Assembly (NCBI RefSeq): GCF_017348835.2
Contig: NZ_CP071375.1
DNA from: Escherichia coli
GTDB lineage: Bacteria > Pseudomonadota > Gammaproteobacteria > Enterobacterales > Enterobacteriaceae
Length of the DNA: 64,000 nt
Direction: 5' to 3' (one strand)
Each line of letters starts with the position of its first letter. The stretch's first letter is position 1. Shown piece by piece: positions 54,001 through 60,000 of this stretch. The position numbers are program-made.

Positions 54001-57000
54001 TCAATAAAAAAGGCGGCAATATCGGAGCGGCAGGTTCTGTCAGCTATATGTTTGACAATACGGGTGTGATTGTATTTAAAGGATCAGACCCTGACCATAT
54101 TTTTGAAATTTTACTTGAAGCTGAAGTTGATGTTCGTGATGTGACTGAAGAAGAAGGTAACATTGTTATTTATACTGAACCTACTGACCTTCATAAAGGA
54201 ATCGCGGCTCTAAAAGCAGCTGGAATCACTGAGTTCTCAACAACAGAATTAGAAATGATTGCTCAATCAGAAGTTGAGCTTTCCCCAGAAGATTTAGAAA
54301 TCTTTGAAGGGCTTGTTGATGCCCTTGAAGATGACGACGATGTACAAAAAGTTTATCATAACGTCGCAAATCTCTAATTATATGTTAAAGAAATCTGTCT
54401 TTATGGCAGATTTCTTTAATCTCATATAATCCTTATAAAAAATATAATGTTTAACTCGTCATATTGCTTATAAAAATCCCCGTTCCCAGAGAAATAATAT
54501 TTATTAAAATGGCAGGTCTTCTTTTTCTGATTACCGAAGACAAAGTGGCAATTACGTATAGTTTCCCGATAAAGACGCGACAGCTACATCCCGCATAAGG
54601 CATTTTTCTCTTTATCTTTGTACGGTACTTCATGGAACAGAATTTTTGACCTTGTGAATCGTGATGTCTGTTGGGGAGGGGCAATTTGCTCACTGAAGCG
54701 TGAGACTCGATTAAGCGCACGAAACACAGAAATCAAAAAACCCGGTCACTTTTTTACAAAGTGACCGGGTAAAAATAATTTTTATTTTTTAACTGCCTTG
54801 AGACTCATAGAGATGTCTCAAAACTAAAATTTGGCTCCTCTGACTGGACTCGAACCAGTGACATACGGATTAACAGTCCGCCGTTCTACCGACTGAACTA
54901 CAGAGGAATCGTGAGAACGAGGCGAATATTAGCGATGCCCACCCACAATGTCAAAGCCTGTTTTTTAAATTTGAAATCGTTTGCTGAAATAATCTGCATT
55001 TTGTCGTTTATTCCGACACAACTGGCTTTTTTTCACACTTTTGCGGCTCGGATCGAGGGTATTTCCATAGCCAACGTCCAGTAACCATTCGCCAGTAAAA
55101 CAGCACGGCCCGCACAGCCCAGTCGGCAAACATTCCCATCCAGACACCAACCACACCCCAGCCAAGCATGATTCCCAGCACATAACCGACTACAACCCGA
55201 CAACCCCACATGCTCAACATCGAAACCCACATGGCGTAACGGGCATCACGAGCACCTTTAAATCCAGCGGGTAGCACCCATGAGGCGGACCAAATAGGCA
55301 TAAATAAAGCATTTAGCCAAATCAGAATCACAACGACATGTTTAACCTGTGGATCCTGGGTGTAAAACGATGCCATAAGCCCGGCAAAGGGAGCCGTTAG
55401 CCAGGCGATGGCCGTTAATCCAAGAGTGGACAGCCAGAACACATGCCGCAACTGAATCTCTGCTTGCGCTATCTGCCCTACCCCCAACCTTCGGCCTGTA
55501 ATGATCGTAGAAGCAGAGCCGAGCGCACTTCCGGGTAAGTTGATAAGAGCCGCAATTGAAAACGCGATAAAATTTCCGGCAATAACACTGGTCCCCATCC
55601 CGGCAACGAACATTTGGGTTAATAACCGACCACTGGTAAATAACACTGATTCGACACTCGCTGGAATACCAATCCCCATGACTTCCCAGATAATGCTAAA
55701 ATTCAGCGGTTTAAAATAGCTCTTTAACGAAATCCTTAGCGCAGGATTAAAACCAATCGCCAGCACCCACAAAATTGCAACTGCGCCAATATAACGAGAA
55801 ATGGTTAAACCCAACCCAGCCCCGACAAATCCCAGTCCCGGCCAGGAGAAAAGGCCGTAAATCAATATGCCGCTAATAATAATATTAAGAATATTCAGGC
55901 TACCGTTAATCAGTAGCGGTATTTTCGTATTCCCTGCACCACGAAGTGCCCCGCTACCAATCAAAGTGATGGCAGCTGCTGGATAACTGAGTACCGTCAG
56001 CTCCAGATAAGTCAACGCCAGTGCTTTAACTTCTGTCGTGGCATCACCCGCAACGAAATCAATAATTTGTTCGCCAAAATGATGAATAAGCGTTGCCAAC
56101 AGTACGGCAAACAAAGTCATGATCACCAATGACTGCCGCGTCGCCACCCTCGCTCGTCGTCGATCCCGCTTACCGAGACTAAATGCCACAACGACAGTAG
56201 TACCAAGATCGATAGCAGCAAAAAAAGCCATAATGACCATATTGAAGCTGTCTGAACCGCCCCGGGTTTCCTGGAGAGTGTTTTATCTGTGAACTCAGGC
56301 TGCCAGATCATTATTTCCGATGGAAGCATAATAAGCTTTTTCTGCTTCTGCCGGAGGAATATGGCCCAGCCTTTCCAGCAATCGTCGATTGTTATACCAG
56401 TCCACCCACGTTAGTGTGGCCAGTTCCACTTCTGTCCGGTTTTTCCAGCTCTTACGGTGTATTACCTCCGCTTTGTAAAGACCATTGATGCTCTCAGCCA
56501 TCGCGTTGTCATACGAGTCGCCAGTACTCCCTGTTGATGCCAGTAATCCGGCTTCCTTAAGCCGCTGCGTGTAGGCCAGCGATACATACTGAGAACCTTT
56601 ATCACTGTGATGGATTGTGCCGGACGGCCGACGGGCCCACAACGCCTGCTCCAGTGCATCCAGCACGAATGTTGTTTCCATGGATGATGAGACCTGCCAT
56701 CCCACGATGTATCCGGCGAACACATCAATGATGAACGCCACATAAACGAAGCCCTGCCATGTGCTTACCCAGGTAAAATCAGCCACCCACAACTGGTCTG
56801 GACGTTCTGCCACGAACTGACGGTTTACGCGGTCGCATGCGGCAACGGCTTTCCGGCTGACGGTAGTGCGGACCTTTTTACCCCGGAGAACACCGGCAAG
56901 TCCCATAACTGCCATGAGACGTGCCACAGTGCATCTGGCCACTCTGATACCTTCCCGTAACAACTGACGCCAGACTTTACGCACACCGTATACCTGGTGA

Positions 57001-60000
57001 TTTTCATCGTATACGCGCTGTATCTCTTTCTTCAGCCAGTCATCGTGCTGCGCACGGGCACTGCGTTTATCCGGATGATGTCGCTGTTGCTGACAATGGT
57101 AATACGTTGACGGGGCAATATGCAGTTCGCTGCATACCGGTCCGACCCCGTACTGCTCACGCAGCTTATCCAGCAGTGGCATTATTTTTTCCAGAGGCGG
57201 TCGAACTCCGCCTTCGCAAAATAAGCGGAAGCCTGGCGAAGGATATCGTTACTGCGGCGCAGTTCACGATTTTCACGTTCCAGCTCTTTCAGACGCTGAC
57301 GTTCAGCGGTGGTGAGTCCACCATCACCACTCCCGGTATCCCGCTCATGCTGGCGAACCCAGACACGCAGAGTCTCCGGCGTACAGCCAATCTTTGGGGC
57401 AATGGAACAAATTGCCGCCCACTGTGAGTCATATTCATCCTGACTTTCCAGAACCATACGAATCGCCCGCTGACGGACTTCGGGGGAAAAACGAGTATTT
57501 TTAGTCATCCTGTTTACCTCTTTCTCAGGGAGTTTAGTCTCCAGGATTTCCGGGGCGGTTCAGTCCGCCAATCCCACGCCGGCCATCGCATCTTTTCCCA
57601 GCCAACTGACCAGAAAAGTGCTCAGGACACCCATCAGCAGGACACAGGCATTCTCCATGTAGATAGGAACAGCAAGCGGGGTTATCTCGCGCCAGAACAA
57701 CACTTTGTAACTCTTGCGTTTGGCGTGCCAGCGAGTGCCGTGAACAACCTGGCGTAAAGCAGAGGAGATATTCAAAGCCGACCTTAATTGCAGAAAGTGA
57801 AACCACATTTCAAATGATGAGGGAGAATCAGCAAAGCTGCAAAGATTTTCGCCAACAAATTGTCTGCAAATGCAACAAACTGTTGATAGAAACGGCAAAC
57901 AGTTGGGAAATTTAAAAATCGGGTTTGACAAAAGATTTTTCGCCGTTAAGATGTGCCTCAACAGCGATTCCTCTGTAGTTCAGTCGGTAGAACGGCGGAC
58001 TGTTAATCCGTATGTCACTGGTTCGAGTCCAGTCAGAGGAGCCAAATTTCTGAAAAGCCCGCTTTTATAGCGGGCTTTTGCTATATCTGATAATCAATTT
58101 CCTCTTCACTGTTTTCCATCACCTGCCGCTTGATATCCTCAACTGACAGTCCTGCATTACAAAGTTCCAGAAAGCGCCAGACATAGTTACGCTGAAGTTG
58201 TCCTCGCTTCAGTCCCAACCAGACAGTATTAGCATCGAAAAGATGCCGCGTATCCAGACGGATTAAATTCTCTTCCTCTTGTTCGCCGCTGGATTGTTCG
58301 GCAACTAATCCGATCCCAAGCCCAAGAGCAACATAGGTTTTAATGACATCAGAATCCTGCGCACTTAATACAATATCTGCCAGCAAACCTTTGCGGGCAA
58401 ATGCGTCATCAATGCGTGAGCGCCCCGTAATACCCTGTCGGTAAGTGATTAACGGCCACTTCGCTATTGATTCCAGCGTCAATGGTGTAATTTGCGTCAA
58501 CGGATGATCGAGTGGAACAAGCAAACTATGGTGCCAACGAAACCACGGGAAGGCGACGAGCTGCGGGTCATTACTCAAACGCTCGCTGGCGATACCAATA
58601 TCAGCTTCGCCATTTTGCAACAACGTCGCAATTTCCTGTGGCGTCCCCTGGATTAGCTCGAGCCGAACCTCCGGGAAAAGTTCGCGAAAAGCTTTAATGA
58701 CCCCTGGCAAGCTATAACGCGCCTGAGTATGCGTCGTTGCAATAGTGAGAACGCCAGACGTATCGTTGGTAAACAGGTCTGCAAGCCGACGAACATTACT
58801 GGCTTCATTCAGAATACGTTCTGCAATGACCAGTAATGCTTTGCCCGGTTCAGTCATGCCCAGCAGTCGCTTACCTCGTCGAACAAATATTTCGATGCCA
58901 AGTTCATCCTCCAGTTCCCGAATATGACGGCTGACGCCTGACTGTGAGGTAAAAAGCATATTCGCAACCTCTGTCAGGTTGTAATCCTGACGTGCAGCTT
59001 CGCGGATTATCTTTAGTTGTTGGAAATTCACGGTAAACTCCGGGCAGTTCAGATATCCCGTTATTGTTAAAGTCTAACGCCCGGCATAACAAATAATAAA
59101 AACCCGCATCTTATTCCATCCCGATATAACGCTTAGCTCACCAATTGCCACTGCCTTTTTTCCATCACTGGAGAACTAATCACTGACATTAACAACTCTT
59201 TCACTGCCTGTGCCTGTGGCGATAAGTTCGCTCTGGCGGGTAAATTTAATGACAAAGAGAGACTCATGGAAGGCGTGGTAATACGTGACATCCACCCATT
59301 TACTGCGCCACATAACGAACGCGCGGCCGATTCGGGTAATACAGCAACGCCCATGCCGCTGGCAATCGCTGCGGTAAGCGTGGCAATAGACTCAATTTCA
59401 CCAATGACTTTTGCCGTGAGCCGCCGTAGGGAAAAAGCCTCATCAACACGAAGTCTAACAGCACTGTAATCACTGGGGAGAAAGAGGTTCATTTGCGCAA
59501 TAGCATTAACATCAACGCTTTGCCCCGGACAATCTTGAGTTCCTACCAGGAAAAGATCTTCTTTCAGCAAAGCCTGACTGGATACCCCAGCAACAGGAGA
59601 ATGCTCATAAATCACCGCCATATCGAGTTGATGATTTATCAGTTTTTCGTTAAGTACTGCACCGCTATTTTCATGAAGATAGATAACGACCTCCGGGAAT
59701 TCAGCGCGAACCGCCTGTAATAAGGGCATGGTGATGGATGACGCAGCGGTTCCTGGCGCAAAGCCAATCGAGACTTGCCCCGATAATGCCTGACCAACGT
59801 TATGCACCGCCAGTTGGGCCTGCTCACACTGACGTAAAATGGCCCGCGCATGGGTATAGAGAATTTTTCCGGCGTCTGTTGGCGTAACGCCCCGTTTTGT
59901 GCGAATCAAAAGTTGTTGATTTAACTCACCTTCCAGTGTGGCAACCTGCTGGCTGAGCGCTGGTTGTGCGATATGCAATACTTCAGCAGCCTGGGTCAGG

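Follow-up and report, generated by a model that had tools for sequence, protein, structure and literature searches.

The yeeO gene of an Escherichia coli strain is divided by an IS629-type element between two copies of a GTC target sequence

Introduction

In one Escherichia coli genome, the MATE-family efflux gene yeeO appears as two pieces with an insertion sequence (IS) between them, and the locus raises the questions of whether a single, simple transposition accounts for the arrangement and whether a working transporter could have survived it. The DNA that we analysed, referred to here as the window, is a stretch of 64,000 nucleotides from contig NZ_CP071375.1 of the NCBI RefSeq assembly GCF_017348835.2. 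An initial annotation described positions 55008-57808 as yeeO split by a copy of IS629 with a GTC target duplication, and interpreted the split as a recent, simple and inactivating insertion. From the analysis reported here, we hold with high confidence that an IS629-type element inserted into yeeO in an ancestor of the sequence type (ST) 302 lineage and left the gene as two pseudogene pieces.

Results

The IS within yeeO occupies positions 56253..57562 on the minus strand (1310 bp), and its transposase is also encoded on the minus strand, which is the orientation of yeeO. The element is bounded by imperfect terminal inverted repeats, the right one (IRR) at 56253-56277 and the left one (IRL) at 57538-57562, which are complementary at 22 of 25 positions; each end starts with TGAACCGCCCCGG. 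The trinucleotide GTC directly abuts both termini, at 56250..56252 on the IRR side and at 57563..57565 on the IRL side. By itself, a 3-bp direct repeat has a chance expectation of 1/64. The arrangement is more than chance because removal of the IS restores the K-12 arrangement base-perfectly, and not because of the GTC repeat alone.

The part of yeeO to the IRR side of the element, at 55008..56252 (minus strand), is the 3' fragment, with 414 codons and a stop codon that correspond to codons 82-495 of a 495-amino-acid (aa) model of the protein; the GAC with which it opens is one of the two copies of the target duplication. The 5' fragment, at 57563..57808 (minus strand), has 82 codons beginning with ATG at 57808, and reads ...GLAD and then TGA, a stop codon that the IS contributes with its last three bases (57560-57562). 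The Prokaryotic Genome Annotation Pipeline (PGAP) independently calls both halves pseudogenes around an IS3 transposase; in strain PE164, a near-identical genome taken up below, its entries read 'yeeO ... missing N-terminus' for the 3' part and 'FMN/FAD transporter ... missing C-terminus' for the 5' part.

We excised the IS and one GTC copy in silico and observed that an uninterrupted 495-aa open reading frame (ORF) was produced. After excision, the interval between asnW and asnU was 1748 bp long, the same as in K-12 MG1655, with 21 substitutions and no gaps (98.80% identity), and the reconstructed 38-bp empty site matched K-12 exactly. The restored protein differs from K-12 YeeO at four positions in a 547-aa model, three of which fall inside the 495-aa model, and neither translation nor comparison with K-12 revealed any further lesion in either fragment. 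Against the NCBIfam equivalog NF007562 (EmmdR/YeeO), the restored protein scored 908 bits (cutoff 465) over profile positions 2-469 of 470, which places it in that family, and it contains two Pfam MatE domains, the first at residues 48-208. The gene is also in the orthologous position, near cbl-nac and yeeN-amn, with the tRNA-Asn gene asnW (54832..54907, minus strand) as its downstream neighbour and the divergent tRNA-Asn gene asnU (57969..58044, plus strand) upstream. Excision of the IS with one duplication copy gives an allele seen in other genomes, as simple transposition would have it. By these observations, which include the excision and K-12 alignment that had been proposed as a check, the coordinates and counts of the initial annotation hold to the base and the frame is reconstituted as it had claimed. 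The duplication is intact, the empty site is reconstructed perfectly and the fragments are otherwise undamaged; nothing in the structure contradicts a simple insertion, and the sequence supports that interpretation.

The division into 82 and 414 codons applies under the 495-aa model used by PGAP and NCBIfam, and is model-dependent. In the K-12 RefSeq annotation, yeeO is a 547-aa gene that begins with a TTG located five bases from asnU, and with that start the 5' fragment would have 134 codons, not 82. In agreement with the longer model, the frame upstream of the ATG at 57808 stays open to 57961/57964. We favour the shorter one because of several features considered together: within the region 57809-57964, the TTG start of the K-12 model is replaced by CTG in the window; the match to NF007562 starts at residue 15 of the 495-aa model, and solved MATE structures align from approximately residue 40; the extension of the 547-aa model contains a near-consensus promoter of asnU (TTGACA-16-TAAGAT, 57925-57952, plus strand); and PGAP starts the 5' fragment at the ATG at 57808. 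These features hint that the 495-aa start, rather than the 547-aa one, may be the real one.

The element itself has the features of the IS629 group, namely, a length of approximately 1310 bp, imperfect terminal repeats, a 3-bp target duplication (GTC around the yeeO copy and ATA around another copy, described below), and two ORFs that overlap in the -1 phase together with a frameshift-stimulating structure. The first, orfA (57182..57508, minus strand), encodes 108 aa with an HTH_Tnp_1 domain. The second, orfB (56295..57182, minus strand), encodes the Pfam rve DDE integrase core together with HTH_21 and rve_3, and scored 311.8 bits against the NCBIfam IS3 family transposase NF033516. An OrfAB fusion is made through a programmed -1 frameshift, which PGAP flags in PE164 as 'programmed frameshift', and the frameshift-stimulating pseudoknot ALIL (Rfam RF01497) was matched at 57111..57227 on the minus strand with 120.3 bits (gathering score 50).

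How narrowly the element may be named is a separate matter. Under the ISfinder convention, isoforms are 95% or more identical in nucleotide sequence to a named reference copy. Compared with one O157:H7 copy that PGAP assigns to the IS1203 family, the yeeO element has 53 mismatches in 1310 positions (95.95% identity), which satisfies the 95% rule at its border and with that O157 IS1203-family copy as the standard. It is 96.0% identical to many copies labelled 'IS3-like element IS1203 family'; identity reaches approximately 99% with certain O157:H7 copies and with other copies that are labelled only 'IS3 family', and 100% with some that have no PGAP label beyond 'IS3 family transposase'. Full-length copies of the IS are widespread: a place covering at least 80% of the element is present in 3042 of 5426 complete E. 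coli genomes. Published sub-types of IS629 differ from each other by 4-5% (more than 55-60 bp), and IS1203 and IS3411 are counted as isoforms (Rump et al. 2011, PMC3271280); the 4% divergence measured here fits that sub-type distance. Judged from these identities to IS1203-family copies, the name IS629 given in the initial annotation appears acceptable at the isoform level, on the borderline of the 95% rule, and should not be taken in a narrower sense.

As a side observation, the yeeO target, GCTGTC|IS|GTCC (56244-56256), resembles the GCTGTCC|IS|GTCC of an IS1203 copy that disrupts iee, the gene for the IS-excision enhancer (IEE), in O157:H7 F3113 (junctions at 3832-3840/5151-5160 of the compared locus). 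This likeness may reflect a weak preference for such targets, or may have arisen by coincidence.

We then come to the distribution of the insertion, for which the two 300-bp junctions were used as queries against the set of 5426 complete E. coli genomes. Both junctions were found at full length in 2 of the 5426, PE164 (NZ_CP114128.1) with 100% identity and F2_18C (NZ_CP043542.1, 'F2_81') with 99.7%, and the uninterrupted yeeO site is present in 5415. Across 300 bp, the yeeO allele of the window is matched at no more than 98.7% identity in any of these 5415 genomes, and for this reason the set offers no close uninserted relative with which to date the insertion. An exact scan of metagenome contigs for a 37-mer across the junction gave 0 matches, and so adds no evidence about prevalence beyond the isolate genomes.

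The window and the PE164 chromosome were compared end to end and are 99.983% identical, with 7 substitutions and 3 indels (at 2108-2109, 3671, 7602, 9604, 11427, 13618, 56412, 56435-56436 and 58377). Three of the substitutions (56412, 56435-56436) fall inside the yeeO IS copy, and several of the differences lie in IS copies or at prophage genes that PGAP calls frameshifted; the probable cause is that the assembly or polishing versions differ. On this sequence identity, we take the window to be PE164 in another assembly version, or else a sister isolate. PE164 is an O108:H9 hybrid of atypical enteropathogenic E. coli (aEPEC) and extraintestinal pathogenic E. coli, from a piglet in Nanjing, China (PMC12233904). 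F2_18C is an ST302 O108:H9 aEPEC from a healthy Australian pig, with CP043542 as its chromosome (PMC6985150).

A repeated element is open to misplacement during assembly, and the genome has approximately 30 near-identical copies of this IS (32 and 31 places in PE164), with the 3 differences inside the yeeO copy between the window and PE164 RefSeq sequences indicating some polishing uncertainty in repeats. An artefact that placed an IS into an intact yeeO is nevertheless so improbable that it can practically be set aside. Both junctions recur in the hybrid assemblies of the Chinese PE164 and the Australian F2_18C, which are independent of each other; the element is complete and lies within a perfect 3-bp duplication, the empty site is reconstructed exactly, and a misplaced repeat would create no target duplication.

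Between PE164 and F2_18C, the flanks of the insertion show 2-5 substitutions per 5-12 kb (at most 0.07%). Since these 2 isolates from different continents share the insertion, it predates their split. The insertion has thus been inherited, and is a lineage marker, for this part of ST302 at least, rather than a private event. The initial annotation had called the insertion recent. That description stands on an evolutionary scale, on which the duplication is intact, no decay is seen and the IS copies differ by no more than 3 bases, but does not extend to an event private to one strain. An origin in O157:H7, a serotype rich in IS629, was also considered as the source of the window and was rejected, the window being 99.983% identical to O108:H9 PE164 and the IS being 4% removed from the O157 IS1203-type copy.

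A literature search found no paper that combines yeeO with IS629, and the main texts of the ST302 and PE164 papers do not mention yeeO. The F2_18C paper describes 23 IS1203 or IS1203-like copies and several disrupted genes, among which yeeO is not listed (PMC6985150).

With regards to the expected effect on the protein, hydropathy places the first transmembrane helix (TM1) at approximately residues 45-71 and TM2 at approximately 77-105, and the IS enters at residue 82/83, a point where TM2 begins and that falls within the first MatE domain. TM1 is part of the N-lobe substrate/cation site in those MATE transporters that have been characterised. The 5' piece would encode the cytoplasmic N-terminus and TM1 only, a one-helix stub ending at the TGA supplied by the IS, and the 3' piece would lack both TM1 and a ribosome-binding site. 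From the truncation, we infer that no functional MATE exporter of flavin mononucleotide (FMN) and flavin adenine dinucleotide (FAD), dipeptides or toxic metabolites is to be expected, and to that extent the sequence supports the description of the insertion as inactivating. According to McAnulty & Wood 2014, as cited in PMC6092379 and PMC6958661, K-12 YeeO exports FMN and FAD.

Two observations weigh against a complete loss of function. A 410-aa ORF persists in the 3' fragment, beginning with ATG at 56240, and a scan of the minus strand between orfB and the junction detected no terminator-like site, so that transcription from the yeeO promoter, or from the IS, which is co-oriented with yeeO, could reach the 3' fragment. 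Were the 410-aa ORF expressed by such read-through, some transport might be kept and the insertion would not be inactivating. Yet this ATG, the first internal one of the 3' fragment, is not preceded by a Shine-Dalgarno sequence. Of the 12-TM MATE fold, the 3' fragment has also lost TM1 and the beginning of TM2, and the resulting odd number of helices would disturb topology. A hybrid outward promoter was sought at the IRR/yeeO junction, and none reached the threshold of the consensus scan. We regard retained transport as very unlikely, and inactivation of YeeO as the expected outcome. A polar effect on asnW, 100 bp downstream, is also unlikely, because asnW has its own consensus-like promoter (54954-54926).

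Precise excision is another route by which function might be regained. Excision at the 3-bp duplication would restore the yeeO frame exactly, and, given transposase and IEE, IS629/IS1203v can be excised precisely, with restoration of the genes that it had interrupted; this excision is about 10^5-fold rarer without IEE (bioRxiv 10.1101/2023.06.07.543989). To serve as a reversible switch, the yeeO insertion would have to be excised in this IEE-enhanced manner at a useful frequency. We searched for iee, at megablast sensitivity, with the gene rebuilt from the O157 locus and fused to a PE164-specific segment; the PE164 chromosome gave one place, and O157 genomes that hold both parts gave two. An earlier composite query held a tRNA-Asn, of which the four copies gave 4 places in every genome, and the F2_18C result with that query, although confounded in this way, is consistent with absence of iee. 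Thus iee was undetected in the PE164 chromosome at megablast sensitivity, a search that does not exclude a plasmid-borne copy or divergent homologues. Because iee was undetected there, reversion is expected to be rare, and a switch of this kind is a highly improbable account of the insertion.

The label 'copy 3' that the initial annotation gave to the yeeO element is right, in that the window has two more copies of the same IS, which differ from the yeeO copy by 1-2 bases. Copy 1 (10277-11586), which lies in a lambdoid prophage, is a simple insertion flanked by an ATA duplication, with a gene for a SASA-family (NanS-p-like) esterase on one side and a holin gene on the other. Copy 2 (43761-45070) has no target duplication, being flanked by GAT on one side and CTG on the other.

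Copy 2 and the yeeO copy can be compared with F2_18C, in which the yeeO halves are approximately 18 kb apart and on opposite strands. There, the 3' half and its IS adjoin the island gene that lies next to copy 2 in the window, the 5' half and its IS adjoin a gene of the OLD family and the start of yeeJ, and a segment of approximately 18 kb, yeeJ-shiA-amn-yeeN-asnW-yeeO', is inverted relative to the window (NZ_CP043542.1 1942400-1972000, compared with 43761-57562 of the window). Recombination of the yeeO IS copy with an inverted copy in the asnT island would give such an inversion. The window, with GTC on both sides of the IS, is the ancestral collinear state. It might be argued that the present arrangement is itself secondary and arose through recombination of IS copies, for example by re-inversion of an F2_18C-like inversion, rather than by the primary insertion; each F2_18C half is IS-attached, and a segment that is able to flip could also flip back tracelessly. 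However, whatever the history of the present state, GTC on either side of the IS and the collinearity of the two halves establish that yeeO was originally hit by a simple insertion at this site, and a re-inversion would not alter this interpretation. Little weight is due to a secondary origin, and we retain a primary, simple insertion as the reading of the window.

The window also lacks approximately 7.0 kb that F2_18C has kept, in which lie the OLD-family gene, the 5' portion of yeeJ and, flanked by a GTT duplication, a third copy of the IS (1891-8869 within NZ_CP043542.1 1942400-1972000; the window side is the truncated yeeJ at 45071-48500). The IRR of window copy 2 abuts yeeJ 4 bp past the place where the IRL of the F2_18C copy sits, which suggests that copy 2 arose with a transposase-mediated deletion adjacent to an IS end. 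Homologous recombination between the two F2_18C copies was considered as its origin and was rejected on account of the 4-bp offset in yeeJ and the opposite IS end.

Several other loci in the window were recorded. The prophage late region that carries copy 1 (~9000-15100) has the layout of an Stx phage, with a Q antiterminator, a three-tRNA cluster (14624-14873), the esterase gene and holin/lysozyme genes; no stx genes are annotated in it, and a pseudogene of the TerB family and a DUF3927 gene are at the position that stxAB would occupy. The genomic island at asnT (~31090-43760), adjacent to copy 2, has a tyrosine integrase, an IS66 element, a MazE/MazF pair, an LA2681-family HEPN protein and a 946-aa hypothetical protein, to which F2_18C adds the adjacent OLD-family gene; genes of this island look like candidate defence genes. 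Downstream of asnV, at 60452-64000, where K-12 has ldtA, are hxlB, a gene for a short-chain dehydrogenase/reductase family oxidoreductase, rpe, and genes for phosphotransferase system components IIB and IIC. This hxlB island is found in only part of the E. coli species.

Discussion

IS3-family elements transpose by a copy-out-paste-in mechanism. In the sequence of events that we propose, an ancestor of the ST302 O108:H9 lineage associated with pigs received an IS629-type element of this family in codon 82 of yeeO, where TM2 begins; transposition duplicated the 3-bp target GTC, and the gene is now in two pseudogene pieces.

This is an ordinary IS insertional pseudogene, already captured by automated public annotation, and it is neither surprising nor mechanistically new. 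Its importance beyond strain bookkeeping is small. The 37-mer GACCATATTGAAGCTGTCTGAACCGCCCCGGGTTTCC across the junction does serve as a clean marker of the ST302 O108:H9 aEPEC lineage of pigs, and the insertion predicts from sequence that strains of the lineage would be without the YeeO exporter of flavins and toxic metabolites. A larger role may be imagined, in which loss of YeeO, instead of being neutral decay, was selected and fixed in porcine ST302 O108:H9 aEPEC and the IS also serves as an arm of a recurrent ~18-kb inversion. In that event, selection in the pig gut might have favoured, for example, the retention of flavins or a changed pattern of efflux, and the inversion segment asnW-yeeN-amn-shiA-yeeJ would differ between isolates. 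We consider this unlikely.

Compared with K-12 yeeO (b1985), the gene in the window has the same site between asnW and asnU and 98.8% nucleotide identity across the interval, and differs from it in being interrupted after codon 82. The element, in turn, resembles the IS629/IS1203/IS3411 group of O157:H7 in its length of 1310 bp, its TGAACCGCCCCGG termini, the 3-bp duplication, the orfA/orfB -1 frameshift and ALIL, and also in multicopy expansion, disruption of genes and rearrangement. It differs from the O157 IS1203-type copy by the 53 substitutions (4%) described above and in bearing only the PGAP name 'IS3 family transposase'. The closest parallels to the yeeO insertion are the IS1203/IS629 disruptions in F2_18C (dprA, agaA, a D-glucarate transporter gene, ynfC and ipaH), which have the element type, the lineage and the mode of inactivation in common with it. 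Disruptions of stx2, lacZ and O-antigen genes by IS1203/IS629 in Shiga toxin-producing E. coli involve the same element type and the same insertional mode of inactivation. Seen beside these systems, yeeO is another case in which expansion of an IS629-type element in attaching-effacing E. coli gives rise both to pseudogenes and to substrates for inversion and deletion.

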